Shown: positions 16,445-32,785 of the stretch, piece after piece
How the letters are laid out: each line of letters starts with the position of its first letter
Numbering within the stretch: position 1 is the stretch's first letter
Origin: Escherichia coli
GTDB taxonomy: Bacteria > Pseudomonadota > Gammaproteobacteria > Enterobacterales > Enterobacteriaceae
DNA: 64,000 nt
Assembly (NCBI RefSeq): GCF_030013595.1
Contig: NZ_CP122768.1
Reading direction: 5' to 3' (one strand)
The notes under the pieces: generated by a model
The model's database searches: none
Told to the model about the DNA's origin: nothing
Seen by the model: only the letters and a program-made list of their open reading frames with translations
Made by a program: the position numbers and the translations under genes

Positions 16445-18724
16445 ATGGATGACCAGTTAAAACAAAGTGCACTTGATTTCCATGAATTTCCAGTTCCAGG
16501 GAAAATCCAGGTTTCTCCAACCAAGCCTCTGGCAACGCAGCGCGATCTGGCGCTGGCCTACTCACCAGGCGTTGCCGCACCTTGTCTTGAAATCGAAAAA
16601 GACCCGTTAAAAGCCTACAAATATACCGCGCGCGGTAACCTGGTGGCGGTGATCTCTAACGGTACGGCGGTGCTGGGGTTAGGCAACATTGGCGCGCTGG
16701 CAGGCAAACCGGTGATGGAAGGCAAGGGCGTTCTGTTTAAGAAATTCGCCGGGATTGATGTATTTGACATTGAAGTTGATGAACTCGACCCGGACAAATT
16801 TATTGAAGTCGTCGCCGCGCTCGAACCGACCTTCGGCGGCATCAACCTCGAAGACATTAAAGCGCCAGAATGTTTCTATATTGAACAGAAACTGCGCGAG
16901 CGAATGAATATTCCGGTATTCCACGACGATCAGCACGGCACGGCAATCATCAGCACTGCCGCCATCCTCAACGGTTTGCGCGTGGTGGAGAAAAACATCT
17001 CTGACGTGCGGATGGTGGTTTCCGGCGCGGGTGCCGCAGCAATCGCCTGTATGAACCTGCTGGTAGCGCTGGGTCTGCAAAAACATAACATCGTGGTTTG
17101 CGATTCAAAAGGCGTTATCTATCAGGGCCGTGAGCCAAACATGGCGGAAACCAAAGCCGCATATGCGGTGGTGGATGACGGCAAACGTACCCTCGATGAT
17201 GTGATTGAAGGCGCGGATATTTTCCTGGGATGTTCCGGCCCGAAAGTGCTGACCCAGGAAATGGTGAAGAAAATGGCCCGTGCGCCAATGATCCTGGCGC
17301 TGGCGAACCCGGAACCGGAAATTCTGCCGCCGCTGGCGAAAGAAGTGCGTCCGGATGCCATCATCTGTACCGGCCGTTCCGACTACCCGAACCAGGTGAA
17401 CAACGTTCTTTGCTTCCCGTTCATCTTCCGTGGCGCGCTGGACGTTGGCGCAACCGCCATCAACGAAGAGATGAAACTGGCGGCGGTACGCGCGATTGCA
17501 GAACTGGCCCATGCGGAACAGAGTGAAGTGGTGGCTTCAGCTTATGGCGATCAGGATCTGAGCTTTGGTCCGGAATACATCATTCCAAAACCGTTTGATC
17601 CGCGCTTGATCGTTAAGATCGCTCCTGCGGTCGCTAAAGCAGCGATGGAGTCCGGCGTGGCGACGCGTCCGATTGCTGATTTCGACGTCTACATCGACAA
17701 GCTGACGGAGTTCGTTTACAAAACCAACCTGTTTATGAAGCCGATTTTTTCCCAGGCTCGCAAAGCGCCGAAGCGCGTCGTTCTGCCGGAAGGTGAAGAG
17801 GCGCGCGTTCTGCATGCCACTCAGGAACTGGTAACGCTGGGGCTGGCGAAACCGATCCTTATCGGGCGTCCGAATGTGATCGAAATGCGCATTCAGAAAC
17901 TGGGCTTGCAGATCAAAGCGGGCGTTGATTTTGAGATCGTCAATAACGAATCCGATCCGCGCTTTAAAGAGTACTGGACCGAATACTTCCAGATCATGAA
18001 GCGTCGCGGTGTCACTCAGGAACAGGCGCAGCGTGCATTGATCAGTAACCCGACAGTGATCGGCGCAATCATGGTTCAGCGTGGCGAAGCCGATGCAATG
18101 ATCTGCGGTACGGTGGGCGATTATCATGAACATTTTAGCGTGGTGAAAAATGTCTTTGGTTATCGCGATGGCGTTCACACCGCAGGTGCCATGAACGCGC
18201 TGCTGCTGCCGAGTGGTAACACCTTTATTGCCGATACATACGTTAATGACGAACCAGACGCAGAAGAGCTGGCGGAGATCACCTTGATGGCGGCAGAAAC
18301 TGTCCGTCGTTTCGGTATTGAACCGCGCGTTGCTCTATTGTCGCACTCCAACTTTGGTTCTTCTGACTGCCCGTCTTCGAGCAAAATGCGTCAGGCGCTG
18401 GAACTGGTCAGGGAACGTGCACCAGAACTGATGATTGATGGTGAAATGCACGGCGATGCAGCGCTGGTGGAAGCGATTCGCAGCGACCGTATGCCGGACA
18501 GCCCTTTGAAAGGTTCCGCTAATATTCTGGTGATGCCGAACATGGAAGCTGCCCGCATTAGTTACAACTTATTGCGCGTTTCCAGCTCGGAAGGTGTGAC
18601 TGTCGGCCCGGTGCTGATGGGGGTGGCGAAACCGGTTCACGTGTTAACGCCGATCGCATCGGTACGTCGTATCGTCAACATGGTGGCGCTGGCTGTGGTT
18701 GAAGCGCAAACCCAACCGCTGTAA
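16445..18724 (+). CDS. maeB: NADP-dependent malic enzyme (malic enzyme domain plus PTA-like C-terminal domain)
   Basis: 759 aa, [44 protein letters not shown].... Confidence 0.93.
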
Positions 18725-18741
18725 TTCATTCTTAACTCTCA

Positions 18742-18776
18742 CGCTTACCCTGAATATTCAGGGTAAGCGGTTTTCC
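18742..18776 (+). terminator. Rho-independent terminator of maeB
   Basis: CGCTTACCCTGAatatTCAGGGTAAGCG followed by gTTTTcc. Confidence 0.75.
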
Positions 18777-19016
18777 TGAAATATATTAGTAAAGCTTATT
18801 ACTGAGTTTACGAATAATAAAAAAAGCAGTATATGAAATATCTCGATATTATTTTATTTATATTCATGCGTCGCATATGAAAGTTTATTCATAACAGTAA
18901 ATATCTCTCCATTCTTAGTGATCTACCTCACCTTTTAAACGCGCTTGCCGAATTTTGTTATTTACTCTGACGAAAAATTGTCACGATACACGAAAGTTTT
19001 TCACAGGCGGCGACTC

Positions 19017-20520: not shown

Positions 20521-21320
20521 AAGATTTCATCACCGAAGCATGGCTAAGAGCGAACCATACGCTCAGCGAAGGCGCAGAGATCCATCTCCCTGCGGACAGT
20601 CGCCTGACGCCCTCTGCCCGGGAGCTACTGGAAAGCCGCCATCTGCGCATCAAGTTTATTGACGAGCAGGGCCGCCTGTTTGTTGACGATGAACAGCAGC
20701 AGCCGCAGCCCGTTCACGGGCTGACCAGTAGCGATGAACATCCGCAGGCGTGCTGCGAACTGTGCCGCCAGCCGGTGGCAAAAAAGCCGGACACTCTGAC
20801 TCACCTGTCGGCGGAAAAAATGGTCGCCAAAAGCGATCCGCGCCTCGGTTTTCGCGCGGTTCTCGACAGCACCATTGCGCTGGCAGTGTGGCTGCAAATT
20901 GAACTGGCAGAACCGTGGCAGCCGTGGCTGGCGGACATCCGCTCGCGTCTTGGCAATATTATGCGTGCCGATGCGCTGGGGGAACCGCTGGCCTGCCAGG
21001 CGATTGTCGGGCTTTCTGACGAAGATCTGCATCGGCTTTCTCACCAGCCGCTGCGCTATCTTGGTCACGATCATCTGGTGCCGGAAGCCAGCCACGGGCG
21101 CGATGCGGCGTTACTCAATCTGCTACGCACCAAAGTGCGGGAAACCGAAACCGTAGCGGCGCAGGTATTTATCACCCGCAGCTTTGAAGTATTACGCCCG
21201 GACATCTTGCAGGCGCTGAACCGCCTTTCCAGCACGGTCTACGTGATGATGATCCTGAGCGTAGCGAAACAACCGCTAACGGTGAAGCAGATCCAACAAC
21301 GACTGGGGGAAACGCAATGA
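20517..21320 (+). CDS. eutT: Cob(I)alamin adenosyltransferase EutT
   Basis: 267 aa; ATGA start/stop overlap with eutQ; operon position. Confidence 0.85.
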
Positions 21321-22333
21321 TTATTGAACGTTGTCGTGAACTGGCGTTGCGAGCGCCCGCCAGAGTGGTTTTTCCGGATGCGTTAGATCAACGTGTGCTG
21401 AAAGCCGCGCAATATTTACATCAACAAGGTCTGGCAACGCCCATTCTGGTCGCCAGCCCGTTTGAACTTCGTCAGTTTGCGCTCAGTCATGGCGTGGCGA
21501 TGGACGGGGTTCAGGTTATTGATCCACAGAGCAATCTTGCTATGCGGGAAGCGTTTGCGCAGCGTTGGTTGGCCCGTGCGGGCGAAAAAACGCCGCCGGA
21601 TGCGCTGGAAAAACTCACCGATCCGCTGATGTTCGCTGCCGCAATGGTCAGCGCCGGGATAGCGGATGTCTGTATCGCGGGCAATCTCTCTTCCACGGCG
21701 AATGTGCTGCGTGCCGGATTACGCATTATTGGCTTACAGCCAGGCTGTAAAACGCTCTCCTCCATTTTCCTGATGCTGCCACAGTACAGTGGCCCCGCAT
21801 TGGGCTTTGCCGATTGCAGCGTAGTGCCACAGCCGACGGCGGCGCAACTGGCGGATATCGCGCTTGCCAGCGCCGAAACCTGGCGCGCCATCACCGGAGA
21901 AGAACCGCGCGTGGCGATGTTGTCGTTTTCCAGTAACGGCAGCGCCCGTCACCCCTGCGTTGCCAACGTCCAGCAGGCGACAGAAATCGTCCGTGAGCGC
22001 GCGCCGCAGTTGGTAGTCGATGGCGAGTTGCAGTTTGACGCCGCCTTCGTGCCGGAAGTGGCGGCGCAAAAAGCGCCTGCCAGCCCGCTACAAGGCAAGG
22101 CCAATGTGATGGTTTTTCCGTCGCTGGAAGCCGGAAATATTGGCTACAAAATCGCACAACGACTCGGCGGATATCGTGCCGTCGGGCCATTGATACAAGG
22201 GCTTGCCGCGCCGATGCACGATCTCTCTCGTGGTTGTAGCGTGCAGGAAATTATCGAGCTGGCGCTGGTGGCAGCTGTGCCGCGTCAGACAGAAGTGAAC
22301 CGCGAAAGCAGTTTACAAACACTGGTTGAATGA
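21317..22333 (+). CDS. eutD: Phosphotransacetylase EutD (EutI)
   Basis: 338 aa, PTA-family motifs. Confidence 0.88.
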
Positions 22334-22371
22334 ACGGTCCCGTTCTGGACCCTGATAAAGAGGAAAGCACA

Positions 22372-22665
22372 ATGGAAGCATTAGGAATGATCGAAACCCG
22401 GGGCCTGGTTGCACTGATTGAGGCTTCTGACGCGATGGTGAAAGCTGCGCGCGTCAAGCTGGTTGGTGTTAAGCAGATTGGCGGCGGCCTGTGTACTGCC
22501 ATGGTTCGTGGTGATGTTGCAGCCTGTAAAGCCGCGACCGACGCAGGTGCTGCAGCGGCACAGCGTATCGGCGAGCTGGTATCTGTACACGTTATCCCGC
22601 GTCCGCACGGCGACCTGGAAGAAGTCTTCCCGATCGGCCTGAAAGGCGATAGCAGCAACCTGTAA
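22372..22665 (+). CDS. eutM: Major BMC-H shell protein EutM
   Basis: 97 aa from [28 protein letters not shown]...; ORF track extends 14 codons upstream to 22330. Confidence 0.9.
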
Positions 22666-22771
22666 TCACCCTGTGTGACGTCGATTCGGGCGTCACGCTC
22701 TCTCCTTTTTCAGTTTACCTTCCGCGGAGGGTAGGGGGAGCTTTTACCTGAAATACGCCACGGAGGCGGGT

Positions 22772-23059
22772 ATGAAACTGGCAGTCGTCACTGGACAAAT
22801 TGTTTGTACCGTACGCCATCACGGACTGGCGCATGACAAATTGCTGATGGTGGAAATGATTGATCCACAAGGTAATCCTGACGGGCAATGCGCCGTCGCC
22901 ATCGACAATATTGGCGCGGGAACCGGGGAGTGGGTGTTACTGGTGAGTGGCAGTTCCGCCCGCCAGGCGCATAAAAGCGAAACGTCACCGGTCGATCTGT
23001 GCGTGATTGGCATCGTCGATGAGGTGGTGTCTGGCGGTCAGGTAATTTTCCACAAATAA
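22772..23059 (+). CDS. eutN: BMC vertex (pentamer) protein EutN
   Basis: 95 aa, MKLAVVTGQIVCTVRHHGL.... Confidence 0.88.
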   Translation: MKLAVVTGQIVCTVRHHGLAHDKLLMVEMIDPQGNPDGQCAVAIDNIGAGTGEWVLLVSGSSARQAHKSETSPVDLCVIGIVDEVVSGGQVIFHK

Positions 23060-23070
23060 GGCAGAACATC

Positions 23071-24474
23071 ATGAATCAACAGGATATTGAACAGGTGGTG
23101 AAAGCGGTACTGCTGAAAATGCAAAGCAGTGACACGCCGCCCGCCGCCCTTCATGAGATGGGTGTTTTCGCGTCCCTGGATGACGCCGTTGCGGCAGCCA
23201 AAGTCGCCCAGCAAGGGTTAAAAAGCGTGGCAATGCGCCAGTTAGCCATTGCTGCCATTCGTGAGGCAGGCGAAAAACACGCCAGAGATTTAGCGGAACT
23301 TGCCGTCAGTGAAACCGGCATGGGGCGCGTCGAAGATAAATTTGCCAAAAACGTCGCTCAGGCGCGCGGCACACCAGGCGTTGAGTGCCTCTCTCCGCAA
23401 GTGCTGACGGGCGACAACGGCCTGACTTTAATTGAAAACGCGCCCTGGGGCGTGGTGGCTTCGGTGACGCCTTCCACTAACCCGGCGGCAACCGTAATTA
23501 ACAACGCCATCAGCCTGATTGCCGCGGGCAACAGCGTCATTTTTGCCCCGCATCCGGCGGCGAAAAAAGTCTCCCAGCGGGCGATTACGCTGCTCAACCA
23601 GGCGATTGTTGCCGCAGGCGGGCCGGAAAACTTACTGGTTACTGTGGTCAATCCGGATATCGAAACCGCGCAACGTTTGTTCAAGTTTCCGGGTATCGGC
23701 CTTTTGGTGGTGACCGGCGGCGAAGCGGTAGTGGAAGCGGCGCGTAAACACACCAATAAACGTCTGATTGCCGCGGGCGCTGGCAACCCACCGGTAGTGG
23801 TGGATGAAACCGCCGACCTCGCCCGTGCCGCTCAGTCCATCGTCAAAGGCGCTTCTTTCGATAACAACATCATTTGTGCCGACGAAAAGGTACTGATTGT
23901 TGTTGATAGCGTAGCCGATGAACTGATGCGTCTGATGGAAGGCCAGCACGCGGTGAAACTGACCGCAGAGCAGGCGCAGCAGCTGGAACCGGTGTTGCTG
24001 AAAAATATCGACGAGCGCGGAAAAGGCACCGTCAGCCGTGACTGGGTTGGTCGCGATGCGGCGAAAATCGCGGCGGCAATCGGCCTTAAAGTTCCGGAAC
24101 AAACGCGACTGCTGTTTGTAGAAACCACCGCAGAACATCCGTTTGCCGTGACCGAACTGATGATGCCGGTGCTGCCCGTCGTGCGTGTCGCCAACGTGGC
24201 GGATGCCATTGCGCTGGCGGTGAAACTGGAAGGCGGTTGCCACCACACGGCGGCAATGCACTCGCGCAACATCGAGAACATGAACCAGATGGCGAACGCC
24301 ATTGATACCAGCATCTTCGTTAAGAACGGACCGTGCATTGCCGGGCTGGGGCTGGGCGGGGAAGGCTGGACCACCATGACCATCACCACGCCAACCGGTG
24401 AAGGGGTAACCAGCGCGCGTACGTTTGTCCGTCTGCGTCGCTGTGTATTAGTCGATGCGTTTCGCATTGTTTAA
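23071..24474 (+). CDS. eutE: CoA-acylating acetaldehyde dehydrogenase EutE
   Basis: 467 aa aldehyde-dehydrogenase family. Confidence 0.9.
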   Translation: MNQQDIEQVVKAVLLKMQSSDTPPAALHEMGVFASLDDAVAAAKVAQQGLKSVAMRQLAIAAIREAGEKHARDLAELAVSETGMGRVEDKFAKNVAQARGTPGVECLSPQVLTGDNGLTLIENAPWGVVASVTPSTNPAATVINNAISLIAAGNSVIFAPHPAAKKVSQRAITLLNQAIVAAGGPENLLVTVVNPDIETAQRLFKFPGIGLLVVTGGEAVVEAARKHTNKRLIAAGAGNPPVVVDETADLARAAQSIVKGASFDNNIICADEKVLIVVDSVADELMRLMEGQHAVKLTAEQAQQLEPVLLKNIDERGKGTVSRDWVGRDAAKIAAAIGLKVPEQTRLLFVETTAEHPFAVTELMMPVLPVVRVANVADAIALAVKLEGGCHHTAAMHSRNIENMNQMANAIDTSIFVKNGPCIAGLGLGGEGWTTMTITTPTGEGVTSARTFVRLRRCVLVDAFRIV

Positions 24475-24484
24475 GGAGTAACAG

Positions 24485-24910
24485 ATGGCGCACGACGAAC
24501 AATGGCTCACCCCGCGTCTGCAAACGGCGGCAACGCTGTGTAACCAGACGCCTGCCGCAACGGAATCTCCGCTGTGGCTGGGGGGGGATCTGGGCACCTG
24601 CGATGTGGTGTCGATGGTTGTCGACCGCGACGGTCAGCCGGTGGCGGTATGCCTCGACTGGGCCGATGTGGTCCGCGACGGCATCGTCTGGGATTTCTTC
24701 GGTGCGGTCACCATTGTTCGTCGCCATCTCGACACCCTCGAGCAGCAATTCGGTCGCCGTTTTAGCCATGCGGCGACCTCATTTCCTCCAGGTACGGACC
24801 CGCGTATTTCCATCAACGTGCTGGAATCTGCCGGGCTGGAAGTGAGCCATGTGCTGGATGAGCCAACCGCAGTCGCGGATCTGCTGCAACTGGACAACGC
24901 AGGCGTAGTG
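24485..24910 (+). pseudogene. eutJ: eutJ 5' fragment (codons 1-142), interrupted by IS10
   Basis: The reading frame runs straight into the IS10 outside end at 24911; 24485..24910 plus 26249..26659 gives 278 codons with a continuous ...NAGVV|DIGGGTTGIAIV... junction. Confidence 0.85.
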
Positions 24911-24956
24911 CTGATGAATCCCCTAATGATTTTGGTAAAAATCATTAAGTTAAGGT

Positions 24957-25025
24957 GGATACACATCTTGTCATATGATCAAATGGTTTCGCGAAAAATC
25001 AATAATCAGACAACAAGATGTGCGA
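24957..25025 (-). ncRNA. Predicted IS10 antisense RNA-OUT (pOUT transcript), placed by position within IS10
   Basis: Coordinates inferred from the known IS10 layout (transposase start at IS nt 108, matching the ATG at 25018); not independently verified. Confidence 0.4.
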
Positions 25026-26226
25026 ACTCGATATTTTACACGACTCTCTTTACCAATTCTGCCCCGAATTACACTTAAAACGACTCAACAGCTTAACGTT
25101 GGCTTGCCACGCATTACTTGACTGTAAAACTCTCACTCTTACCGAACTTGGCCGTAACCTGCCAACCAAAGCGAGAACAAAACATAACATCAAACGAATC
25201 GACCGATTGTTAGGTAATCGTCACCTCCACAAAGAGCGACTCGCTGTATACCGTTGGCATGCTAGCTTTATCTGTTCGGGCAATACGATGCCCATTGTAC
25301 TTGTTGACTGGTCTGATATTCGTGAGCAAAAACGACTTATGGTATTGCGAGCTTCAGTCGCACTACACGGTCGTTCTGTTACTCTTTATGAGAAAGCGTT
25401 CCCGCTTTCAGAGCAATGTTCAAAGAAAGCTCATGACCAATTTCTAGCCGACCTTGCGAGCATTCTACCGAGTAACACCACACCGCTCATTGTCAGTGAT
25501 GCTGGCTTTAAAGTGCCATGGTATAAATCCGTTGAGAAGCTGGGTTGGTACTGGTTAAGTCGAGTAAGAGGAAAAGTACAATATGCAGACCTAGGAGCGG
25601 AAAACTGGAAACCTATCAGCAACTTACATGATATGTCATCTAGTCACTCAAAGACTTTAGGCTATAAGAGGCTGACTAAAAGCAATCCAATCTCATGCCA
25701 AATTCTATTGTATAAATCTCGCTCTAAAGGCCGAAAAAATCAGCGCTCGACACGGACTCATTGTCACCACCCGTCACCTAAAATCTACTCAGCGTCGGCA
25801 AAGGAGCCATGGGTTCTAGCAACTAACTTACCTGTTGAAATTCGAACACCCAAACAACTTGTTAATATCTATTCGAAGCGAATGCAGATTGAAGAAACCT
25901 TCCGAGACTTGAAAAGTCCTGCCTACGGACTAGGCCTACGCCATAGCCGAACGAGCAGCTCAGAGCGTTTTGATATCATGCTGCTAATCGCCCTGATGCT
26001 TCAACTAACATGTTGGCTTGCGGGCGTTCATGCTCAGAAACAAGGTTGGGACAAGCACTTCCAGGCTAACACAGTCAGAAATCGAAACGTACTCTCAACA
26101 GTTCGCTTAGGCATGGAAGTTTTGCGGCATTCTGGCTACACAATAACAAGGGAAGACTTACTCGTGGCTGCAACCCTACTAGCTCAAAATTTATTCACAC
26201 ATGGTTACGCTTTGGGGAAATTATGA
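25018..26226 (+). CDS. IS10 transposase
   Basis: 402 aa, MCELDILHDSLYQFCPELHLKRLNSL...HGYALGKL; identical at protein level to the copy at 31470..32678. Confidence 0.93.
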   Translation: MCELDILHDSLYQFCPELHLKRLNSLTLACHALLDCKTLTLTELGRNLPTKARTKHNIKRIDRLLGNRHLHKERLAVYRWHASFICSGNTMPIVLVDWSDIREQKRLMVLRASVALHGRSVTLYEKAFPLSEQCSKKAHDQFLADLASILPSNTTPLIVSDAGFKVPWYKSVEKLGWYWLSRVRGKVQYADLGAENWKPISNLHDMSSSHSKTLGYKRLTKSNPISCQILLYKSRSKGRKNQRSTRTHCHHPSPKIYSASAKEPWVLATNLPVEIRTPKQLVNIYSKRMQIEETFRDLKSPAYGLGLRHSRTSSSERFDIMLLIALMLQLTCWLAGVHAQKQGWDKHFQANTVRNRNVLSTVRLGMEVLRHSGYTITREDLLVAATLLAQNLFTHGYALGKL

Positions 26227-26239
26227 GGGGATCTCTCAG

Positions 26240-27836: not shown

Positions 27837-27842
27837 AAGTGT

Positions 27843-27940
27843 ACGGACAGTCCCCTCGCCCCTTTGGGGAGAGGGTTAGGGTGAGGGGAACAGAGTCGCG
27901 CCGGTGCAAACAATTACCCTCACCCCGGCCCCTCGGCTTC
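27843..27940. repeat. GC-rich interspersed palindromic repeat (boxC-like), copy 2, with an extra inverted arm
   Basis: acggacagtcccctcgcccctttggggagagggttagggtgaggggaac, then ttaccctcaccccggcccctcggc, which is partly complementary to it. Confidence 0.55.
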
Positions 27941-28005
27941 CAGAGTGAGGGAAAAACCCACTTTCAGCATTGGCAATAAATAACAACTAACAGGGAGTAA
28001 AGGCG

Positions 28006-31456: not shown

Positions 31457-31469
31457 CTGAGAGATCCCC

Positions 31470-32678
31470 TCATAATTTCCCCAAAGCGTAACCATGTGTG
31501 AATAAATTTTGAGCTAGTAGGGTTGCAGCCACGAGTAAGTCTTCCCTTGTTATTGTGTAGCCAGAATGCCGCAAAACTTCCATGCCTAAGCGAACTGTTG
31601 AGAGTACGTTTCGATTTCTGACTGTGTTAGCCTGGAAGTGCTTGTCCCAACCTTGTTTCTGAGCATGAACGCCCGCAAGCCAACATGTTAGTTGAAGCAT
31701 CAGGGCGATTAGCAGCATGATATCAAAACGCTCTGAGCTGCTCGTTCGGCTATGGCGTAGGCCTAGTCCGTAGGCAGGACTTTTCAAGTCTCGGAAGGTT
31801 TCTTCAATCTGCATTCGCTTCGAATAGATATTAACAAGTTGTTTGGGTGTTCGAATTTCAACAGGTAAGTTAGTTGCTAGAACCCATGGCTCCTTTGCCG
31901 ACGCTGAGTAGATTTTAGGTGACGGGTGGTGACAATGAGTCCGTGTCGAGCGCTGATTTTTTCGGCCTTTAGAGCGAGATTTATACAATAGAATTTGGCA
32001 TGAGATTGGATTGCTTTTAGTCAGCCTCTTATAGCCTAAAGTCTTTGAGTGACTAGATGACATATCATGTAAGTTGCTGATAGGTTTCCAGTTTTCCGCT
32101 CCTAGGTCTGCATATTGTACTTTTCCTCTTACTCGACTTAACCAGTACCAACCCAGCTTCTCAACGGATTTATACCATGGCACTTTAAAGCCAGCATCAC
32201 TGACAATGAGCGGTGTGGTGTTACTCGGTAGAATGCTCGCAAGGTCGGCTAGAAATTGGTCATGAGCTTTCTTTGAACATTGCTCTGAAAGCGGGAACGC
32301 TTTCTCATAAAGAGTAACAGAACGACCGTGTAGTGCGACTGAAGCTCGCAATACCATAAGTCGTTTTTGCTCACGAATATCAGACCAGTCAACAAGTACA
32401 ATGGGCATCGTATTGCCCGAACAGATAAAGCTAGCATGCCAACGGTATACAGCGAGTCGCTCTTTGTGGAGGTGACGATTACCTAACAATCGGTCGATTC
32501 GTTTGATGTTATGTTTTGTTCTCGCTTTGGTTGGCAGGTTACGGCCAAGTTCGGTAAGAGTGAGAGTTTTACAGTCAAGTAATGCGTGGCAAGCCAACGT
32601 TAAGCTGTTGAGTCGTTTTAAGTGTAATTCGGGGCAGAATTGGTAAAGAGAGTCGTGTAAAATATCGAGTTCGCACAT
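31470..32678 (-). CDS. IS10 transposase
   Basis: 402 aa, identical to the copy at 25018..26226. Confidence 0.93.
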   Translation of the reverse strand: MCELDILHDSLYQFCPELHLKRLNSLTLACHALLDCKTLTLTELGRNLPTKARTKHNIKRIDRLLGNRHLHKERLAVYRWHASFICSGNTMPIVLVDWSDIREQKRLMVLRASVALHGRSVTLYEKAFPLSEQCSKKAHDQFLADLASILPSNTTPLIVSDAGFKVPWYKSVEKLGWYWLSRVRGKVQYADLGAENWKPISNLHDMSSSHSKTLGYKRLTKSNPISCQILLYKSRSKGRKNQRSTRTHCHHPSPKIYSASAKEPWVLATNLPVEIRTPKQLVNIYSKRMQIEETFRDLKSPAYGLGLRHSRTSSSERFDIMLLIALMLQLTCWLAGVHAQKQGWDKHFQANTVRNRNVLSTVRLGMEVLRHSGYTITREDLLVAATLLAQNLFTHGYALGKL

Positions 32679-32739
32679 CTTGTTGTCTGATTATTGATTT
32701 TTCGCGAAACCATTTGATCATATGACAAGATGTGTATCC
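32671..32739 (+). ncRNA. Predicted IS10 antisense RNA-OUT of copy 2, placed by position
   Basis: Mirror of the copy-1 placement; pOUT points toward the outside end at 32785 and onward into eutB'-eutC. Confidence 0.4.
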
Positions 32740-32785
32740 ACCTTAACTTAATGATTTTTACCAAAATCATTAGGGGATTCATCAG

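Follow-up and report, generated by a model that had tools for sequence, protein, structure and literature searches.

Why does an operon whose genes are otherwise tightly packed leave 106 nt between the genes for two of its shell proteins, eutM and eutN? A microcompartment shell requires many more facet hexamers (EutM) than vertex pentamers (EutN), and the enterobacterial eut genes are controlled by EutR, not EutVW. The window analyzed here, a stretch of 64,000 nt, contains the Escherichia coli eut operon on its plus strand, in the order eutQ, eutT, pta/eutD, eutM, eutN, eutE. The gene coordinates give the gap the length reported in the initial annotation of this DNA. The tight packing described there for the other eut genes also holds: the remaining junctions are overlaps or gaps of 10-38 nt, with the exception of eutG-eutH (169 nt), and eutE starts only 11 nt after eutN. 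The features at the junction are the following.

22372-22665, plus strand: eutM, major BMC-H shell protein, 97 aa (open reading frame list and RefSeq annotation of an identical sequence)
22663-22665, plus strand: TAA stop codon of eutM
22666-22771, plus strand: eutM-eutN intercistronic spacer, 106 nt, single copy per E. coli genome, unannotated
22772-23059, plus strand: eutN, BMC-P pentamer vertex protein, 95 aa

In each of 5,407 E. coli genomes the spacer was found at a single place, the matches labeled as plasmids being mislabeled chromosomes only, and no second copy was found within the window. It carries no annotated feature in the RefSeq genomes checked, including MG1655 (2572051-2572156). 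Searching positions 21000-24500 against Rfam with cmscan (E ≤ 10) gave no hit to the ANTAR target RNA, the AdoCbl riboswitch or any other family, and a sigma-70 promoter scan of both strands of the spacer returned no site. We also rejected the possibility that the spacer is coding: the sole frame through it is a 19-codon GTG open reading frame lacking a Shine-Dalgarno sequence, and any reading frame would be broken because the loop of the first hairpin described below ranges from 4 to 20 nt among species. Our literature search found no description of the eutM-eutN spacer; operon-internal RNA elements of this kind are already well known, and the two-hairpin element itself has apparently not been described before.

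The MFE fold and the RNAalifold consensus of 15 species agree on two hairpins and a small hairpin at the Shine-Dalgarno sequence of eutN, arranged as follows.

22673-22698, plus strand: hairpin 1 (MFE fold and RNAalifold)
22697-22741, plus strand: hairpin 2, bulged, ending directly before UUUUACCUGAAAU (MFE fold and RNAalifold)
22699-22723, plus strand: C/U-rich, G-poor tract CUCUCUCCUUUUUCAGUUUACCUUCC, which supplies the 5' arms of hairpin 2
22742-22754, plus strand: tail UUUUACCUGAAAU, directly 3' of hairpin 2 and starting with UUUU (22742-45)
22756-22768, plus strand: mini-hairpin CGCC-ACGGA-GGCG, 4 bp, at the eutN ribosome-binding site (RNAalifold)

Hairpin 1 begins 7 nt after the UAA stop codon of eutM. 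The GC hairpin that the initial annotation had placed at 22675-22696 is indeed there, formed by GTGACG (22675-80) and CGTCAC (22691-96), but the true stem is longer, with 10 bp in E. coli (22673-82 with 22689-98) that include two G·U pairs; its loop is GAUUCG and its dG is -16.2 kcal/mol. An account with a single hairpin is incomplete, as it overlooks hairpin 2. The lower stem of the latter pairs 22697-22704 with 22734-22741 (in an alternative register, 22700-06 with 22734-40), that is, the C/U-rich 5' arm with GGGGGAG(C). A 5' bulge of about 9-11 nt (22705-22715) leads to an upper stem of 7 bp (UACCUUC/GAGGGUA, 22716-22 with 22727-33) and to a tetraloop at 22723-26, which is CGCG in the window and UGCG (UNCG type) in most E. 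coli; the dG is -15 to -17 kcal/mol. The T-run noticed earlier at 22706-22710 is exactly in place but belongs to this bulge and is no terminator tail. The 25 nt that follow hairpin 1 include 8-9 C and 0-1 G, and the tract at 22699-22723 contains a single G in the window and no G in the common E. coli allele. On the minus strand, the common E. coli allele also shows a -10-like TAAAAT at 22712-22717, with no -35 element.

Judged by a single sequence, the fold is not striking. The z-score of the whole spacer is -1.95, and of 2000 dinucleotide shuffles, 7.8% also produced a stem of 10 bp or longer, and 3.9% one of 8 bp or longer in which six or more pairs were G-C, so that the hairpin is marginally beyond chance (P about 0.04-0.08). 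We accept it as real because of its conservation and covariation, and on this comparative sequence evidence the existence of a structured eutM-eutN spacer is confirmed. The fold is specific to the sense strand, at -42.7 kcal/mol versus -32.8 kcal/mol for the antisense strand, where the G·U pairs turn into A·C mismatches, thus weakening the fold by 10 kcal/mol; an antisense function was rejected on this ground.

Conservation of the hairpin across eut loci, a check proposed in the initial annotation, was followed in a scan for EutN with one genome per species. The scan yielded 48 loci, 43 of them with eutM just upstream, and all 43 spacers (52-211 nt) contain a strong hairpin. In Enterobacteriaceae these hairpins have a dG of -12 to -58 kcal/mol and usually lie 1-10 nt past the eutM stop codon. 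The element found in E. coli, which we call Type 1, is present in 25 species: five Escherichia, thirteen Citrobacter and Klebsiella spallanzanii, together with diverged forms in four Buttiauxella species, Entomohabitans and Yokenella. The spacers of Pseudomonas nitroreducens and two Rhodocyclaceae between the eutM and eutN homologs (131-211 nt) are GC-rich and strongly folding, and unrelated in sequence to the enterobacterial ones. EutN sequences 87-100% identical to that of E. coli were also encountered on contigs of 269-466 bp in assemblies of Gemelliphila palaticanis, a Prolixibacteraceae bacterium and Caballeronia mineralivorans; these tiny contigs are probably enterobacterial contamination.

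The spacers of E. coli and the C. freundii group share 74-83% identity (counting indels as mismatches), versus 50-55% for the four-fold degenerate sites of pta, eutM, eutN and eutE. In the alignment of 15 species, 76 columns are invariant. The tracts invariant in sequence are TGACG/CGTCA, CTCTCC, the GGAG at the apex of hairpin 2, GGGGAG and TTTTACCTGAAA; within the C/U tract, the TTTT accompanying CTCTCC is invariant in the 15 species as well. The tail UUUUACCUGAAAU does not vary among Escherichia, Citrobacter and K. spallanzanii; Buttiauxella and Entomohabitans retain UACCUGAA. Variants in the four sampled E. coli strains and the Escherichia species fall mostly in loops, in the bulge or in the 5' flank; the only sampled E. 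coli variant touching a paired position is C22705A in O157:H7 (EC4115), in the C/U arm of the hairpin 2 lower stem.

The paired positions change in a compensatory manner. The core of hairpin 1 (TGACG at 22676-80, CGTCA at 22691-95) is invariant in the 25 species, in which the stem has 9-11 bp and the loop 4-20 unconserved nucleotides, and the flanking pairs alternate between G-C and A-U, among U-G, G-C and C-G, and among C-G, U-G and U-A. In the comparison, 15-16 of the 16 stem positions match, versus only 1-2 of the 7-15 loop positions. In hairpin 2, the pair adjoining the U-tract covaries in the RNAalifold/MAFFT alignment (C-G 7, G-C 4, U-G 2), and two pairs of the upper stem are compensated (A-U to G-C and C-G to U-A); in a wider species set, five of the seven upper-stem pairs covary, around an apex GGAG (22726-29) that does not. 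Overall, three pairs in the MAFFT alignment have compensatory changes on both sides. In a 22-species alignment fitted to a covariance model (CM), which leans towards the structure, 97% of the cells pair and 11 pairs show two-sided changes, a covariation that none of 500 shuffles reach and that slid controls attain at most by half; the 25-species pair table for hairpin 1 is independent of this alignment. The covariance model built from the MAFFT alignment finds the element at the eutM-eutN junction only in the 293 kb searched. A weak match in the maeB-eutS intergenic/promoter region (18719-18825; 14.5 bits, E = 0.18, GC 0.31) is probably due to chance. Taken at the level of sequence, these patterns indicate that the spacer is under strong purifying selection as a sense-strand RNA structure. 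We also considered a switch in which the 5' arm of hairpin 2, UACCUUC, would pair as an anti-Shine-Dalgarno sequence with the GGAGG of eutN. This was rejected because Citrobacter R56 and NCU1 have the arm UGUUCUC instead, with hairpin 2 kept by compensatory changes.

A second class of spacers, found in 15 species, has bona fide REP/BIME elements in the eutM-eutN gap. It comprises Salmonella enterica subspecies diarizonae and arizonae, Klebsiella pneumoniae, K. oxytoca, K. michiganensis and K. grimontii, and also Citrobacter koseri, C. amalonaticus, C. sedlakii, Pseudocitrobacter and Pluralibacter. The REP in the Salmonella gap is TAGGCCGGATAAGACGCGTAGCGTCGCCATCCGGCA, which we compared with the window's own REP at 50712-45. 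Only the last ~20 nt (TTACC...A[C/U]GGAGGCGGGT ATG) are common to Type 1 and REP spacers. No REP motif of the GCCGGATG.../...CTTATCCGGCCTAC type was found in the 25 Type 1 spacers, and the E. coli element, at a single place per genome, does not have the many dispersed copies of a REP/BIME.

Insertions and pseudogenes were seen in the eut loci of several strains. In the window, the operon is broken downstream of the eutM-eutN spacer by two complete, inverted IS10 copies (24911-26239 and 31457-32785; 1329 bp each, with a 402-aa transposase), which interrupt eutJ and eutB; the insertions were independent, since they are flanked by different 9-bp target duplications (GGCGTAGTG and CGCGCAGTG). In E. 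coli strain 90-1, an IS911 (1579-2858 of its locus) has entered the spacer itself right after GGGGGAGCTT, inside the U-tract that follows hairpin 2, and separates the hairpins from eutN. The eutE of strain HCP5S3_I2 and the pta/eutD of strain Ec-042-T0 are annotated as pseudogenes with internal stops. Together, these cases suggest that eut decay is frequent among E. coli strains.

How are the genes on either side of the spacer expressed? Relative iBAQ abundances for E. coli K-12 W3110 on ethanolamine plus B12 are EutQ 100, EutM 96, EutL 39, EutB 37, EutE 27, EutC 24, EutS 11, EutD 10, EutK 8, EutG 7, EutP 7 and EutN 1 (PMC11334477). EutN is the least abundant Eut shell protein in these data, and with EutM at 96 versus EutN at 1 the spacer therefore divides the most abundant from the least abundant shell protein. 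The downstream enzymes show no general step-down; EutE, EutB, EutC and EutL exceed the upstream EutD, EutS and EutP. Thus, there is little net polarity across the spacer, and gene-specific translation is the dominant influence, so that any termination must be weak and the big step is specific to eutN. The initial annotation had proposed an RNA element that favors EutM over the downstream enzymes. An element favoring EutM fits the selection on the spacer, its sense-strand specificity, its replacement by REPs, the RNA-seq data given next and the EutM:EutN ratio, but EutE (27), EutB (37) and EutL (39) argue against a strong polarity on the enzymes.

At the RNA level, RPKM values for the AIEC strain LF82 in minimal medium are 108 for eutD, 55 for eutM, 5 for eutN, 14 for eutE and 13 for eutJ, and with bile salts, when the operon is induced, 357, 177, 62, 149 and 147, respectively (PMC6379400). 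From eutM to eutN there is a 3-11-fold drop, with partial or full rebound at eutE, in this one study with low counts. Induction raises eutD and eutM 3.2-3.3-fold versus 10-12-fold for eutN, eutE and eutJ. The E. coli 3'-end tables of Adams 2021 list no sense-strand end for eutM, eutN, eutD or eutE, because the operon was not induced. The only mapped RNA 3' end near the spacer is an antisense one at about 22605 on the minus strand (K-12 2572217 +), in the 3' part of eutM (Adams et al. 2021). The only other large gap of the operon, eutG-eutH (27837-28005; 169 nt here, 216 nt in MG1655), contains a GC-rich imperfect palindromic repeat (CCCCTCGCCCCTTTGGGGAGAGGGTTAGGGTGAGGGG ... CCCTCACCCC), and in LF82 the RPKM of eutH is 3-fold over that of eutG (35 to 106; 168 to 514), which suggests an internal promoter or stabilizer in that gap. 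A kinship between GAGGG-TAGGGGGAG of the spacer and the eutG-eutH repeat GAGGGTTAGGGTGAG was rejected, the similarity (18) not being above that of shuffled controls (16 ± 2).

From these observations we tentatively infer, with a probability of roughly 45%, that the spacer is an intercistronic RNA expression boundary, that is, an exonuclease barrier or weak terminator combined with a translational uncoupler. The boundary would consist of the two stable stem-loops past the eutM stop codon, the short U-rich tail and a partly occluded eutN ribosome-binding site. Downstream RNA 3' ends would be generated by weak termination at the junction of hairpin 2 with UUUU, by Rho acting in poorly translated eutN, or by endonuclease cleavage in the single-stranded UUUUACCUGAAAU. 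The consensus of RNase E is RN|WUU, which the junction GC|UUU fits. Such ends would be trimmed back to the hairpins, which would block PNPase and RNase II, and the eutS-eutM segment would outlive the downstream RNA. At the same time, the hairpins and the 106-nt distance would uncouple eutN from the heavy ribosome traffic on eutM; this uncoupling and the structured start region of eutN would keep EutN about 100-fold below EutM.

Several known systems resemble the spacer in part. Intercistronic "decay terminator" hairpins favor a structural subunit in the Rhodobacter puf operon (pufBA/pufLMX) and in E. coli pili (papB-papA). As in the eut operon, the gene of the excess subunit would lie upstream of the hairpin and less would be required of the products encoded beyond it, but the sequences are unrelated and the downstream Eut enzymes are not uniformly scarce. 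The ANTAR (EutV) antiterminator targets of Firmicute eut loci share with it two neighboring hairpins in a non-coding gap of a eut locus; unlike them, the spacer has no Rfam match, and its loops are of 4-20 nt instead of conserved hexaloops. REP/BIME elements act as intercistronic mRNA stabilizers, for instance at malE-malF, a role summarized elsewhere (PMC6061677). They too are stable stem-loops between cistrons near the upstream stop codon, and bona fide REPs occupy the orthologous gap in Salmonella, Klebsiella, other Citrobacter, Pseudocitrobacter and Pluralibacter; the E. coli element differs in lacking the REP consensus and in being a single-copy, conserved orthologous sequence with its own motifs. 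What it does have of an intercistronic stabilizer is a stable, conserved stem-loop of the sense RNA between cistrons. More generally, E. coli stem-loops that lack a U-tract, among them REPs, stop PNPase and RNase II and thereby fix stable 3' ends (PMC6061677), and the sequence just downstream of them has more C than G (PMC6061677, Dar and Sorek). Hairpin 1, stable and without an adjacent U-tract, followed by the C-rich, G-poor 22699-22723, fits this description of the stem-loops at Rho-dependent 3' ends, and for this reason the intercistronic boundary is favored. Those stem-loops, however, stand at transcript ends, whereas the spacer is inside an operon whose downstream genes are expressed.

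Other observations weigh against the boundary: eutE and eutJ return to the level of eutM when the operon is induced, the RPKM of eutM is below that of eutD, which is unexpected for a 3'-protected fragment, and a plain exonuclease barrier does not need the invariant sequence tracts. Moreover, Liang, Rudd and Deutscher reportedly observed in 2015 that a stem-loop located 15 nt or less from a stop codon can reduce the expression of the upstream gene, an effect that would be of opposite sign for EutM.

The alternative that fares best, although we consider it somewhat unlikely, is that the spacer chiefly insulates or represses eutN at the level of translation. The hairpins would bar re-initiation after eutM and the structured ribosome-binding site would keep EutN ~100-fold lower, the low eutN RNA being secondary to the faster decay of untranslated RNA. 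The protein data agree with this (EutN 1, versus EutM 96 and EutE 27, the product of a gene only 11 nt after eutN), as does an RNA level of eutN below that of both neighbors. The Shine-Dalgarno sequence of eutN, GGAGG (22762-66; start codon ATG at 22772), is contained in the ACGGA loop and 3' arm of the mini-hairpin, in which the CM-fitted alignment shows only one-sided changes. In a crude accessibility model, the predicted energy required to open positions -20 to +12 is 13.4 kcal/mol for eutN versus 4.5-6.1 kcal/mol for eutM, and thus among the highest in the operon, even though the Shine-Dalgarno sequence is strong (-9.5 kcal/mol). Against this alternative, the opening energy is equal with 70 or 120 nt of upstream context, so that no part of it comes from hairpin 1 or the spacer's 5' end; both contexts include hairpin 2. 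A long-range helix closing the 5' end of the spacer onto the ribosome-binding site, ACCC (22668-71) with GGGU (22768-71), was rejected, as it is not conserved in the C. freundii group; it is also without effect on the opening energy of the ribosome-binding site. In a variant of the alternative, CsrA might bridge two GGA motifs, which we sought at 10-63 nt from each other: GGAG at the apex of hairpin 2 (22726-29) and the ACGGA loop of the mini-hairpin (22760-64). The invariance of the former amid a covarying upper stem speaks for this, and so does A(C/U)GGAGG, kept at the ribosome-binding site in all enterobacterial spacer types; the GGA motif is, however, not consistently present in Buttiauxella or Entomohabitans, and the supplements of a CsrA CLIP study list no eut entry, the operon being probably unexpressed there.

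It is unlikely that the spacer is a partial intrinsic (Rho-independent) terminator giving a short eutS-eutM transcript and less downstream RNA. Transcription would stop either at the T-run at 22706-10 after hairpin 1 or, more plausibly, at UUUU (22742-45) after hairpin 2, with UUUUACCUGAAAU as what could be a weak U-tract. The first combination, suggested in the initial annotation, does not survive inspection: the T-run is 7 nt off the stem, interrupted, and within hairpin 2. In favor of termination, a lenient scan flags 22673-22698 plus its tail, the lower stem of hairpin 2 ends directly at (G/C)UUUU with a closing pair that covaries (C-G, G-C, U-G), UUUU is invariant, and RNA drops from eutM to eutN in LF82. 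Like intrinsic terminators and attenuators, the spacer thus has GC-containing stems followed by U residues and a covarying pair next to the U-tract. Unlike them, it has four U residues instead of a 7-8-nt U-tract directly after the stem, a stem interrupted by a bulge of 9-11 nt, and negative d'Aubenton-Carafa-type scores: -20 for hairpin 1 and -46 to -21 for hairpin 2 (tail UUUUACCU), versus +25 and +30 for two out of three terminators used as controls, the third of which also scored low. The Citrobacter tail after hairpin 1 scores 0.7. Furthermore, the RNA levels of eutE and eutJ are about equal to that of eutM upon induction, the downstream proteins are abundant, and the REP elements that occupy the gap in other species are not intrinsic terminators.

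We regard as improbable a more elaborate reading, in which the spacer is a dedicated, sequence-specific cis-regulatory RNA motif that a trans-acting factor (CsrA or a nuclease) would read, fixing the EutM:EutN ratio at ~100:1. Its parts would be the invariant TGACG/CGTCA hairpin, the GGA-presenting UNCG hairpin and a possible pseudoknot between UGAAA (22749-53) in the tail and UUUCA (22708-12) in the bulge, and read-through or processing would change on induction. The pseudoknot helix is compatible with the sequences of 15 of 15 species, with one-sided changes only. If this reading were true, the motif would merit an RNA family of its own, and the REP elements of the sister species would partly stand in for it functionally.

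There is very little probability that the spacer is neutral filler or the relic of a mobile repeat with no role in eut expression. Mobile REP/BIME elements do sit in the gap of 15 species, the eutG-eutH gap also has a GC-rich palindromic repeat, and an IS911 has inserted in the spacer of one strain; yet the spacer is single-copy in the E. coli genomes, its covariance model matches the junction only, its likeness to the eutG-eutH repeat is at the level of shuffles, and it is far more conserved than synonymous sites, with compensatory changes. This conservation largely refutes such a reading. Equally remote is a DNA-level site in which a dimeric DNA-binding protein would bind the inverted repeat TGACG...CGTCA: both half-sites are invariant in 25 species, but they lie anywhere from 8 to 26 nt apart, the pairs that flank them covary and include G·U, which is meaningful in RNA only, and there is no promoter-like site nearby. 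The readings of the spacer as boundary, insulator, terminator, filler and DNA site are not fully exclusive of one another.

Should the preferred reading, an RNA expression boundary, come down to a generic hairpin barrier, the spacer would add one more case to a well-known type of operon design. The spacer is also relevant to engineered Eut shells, whose eutSMNLK cassettes are usually rebuilt without the native spacers. For the biology of the microcompartment, a conserved RNA boundary that coincides with the eutM-eutN junction offers a testable candidate for a mechanism contributing to the EutM:EutN ratio, and the unrelated REP stem-loops at the same junction of other enterobacteria point the same way.
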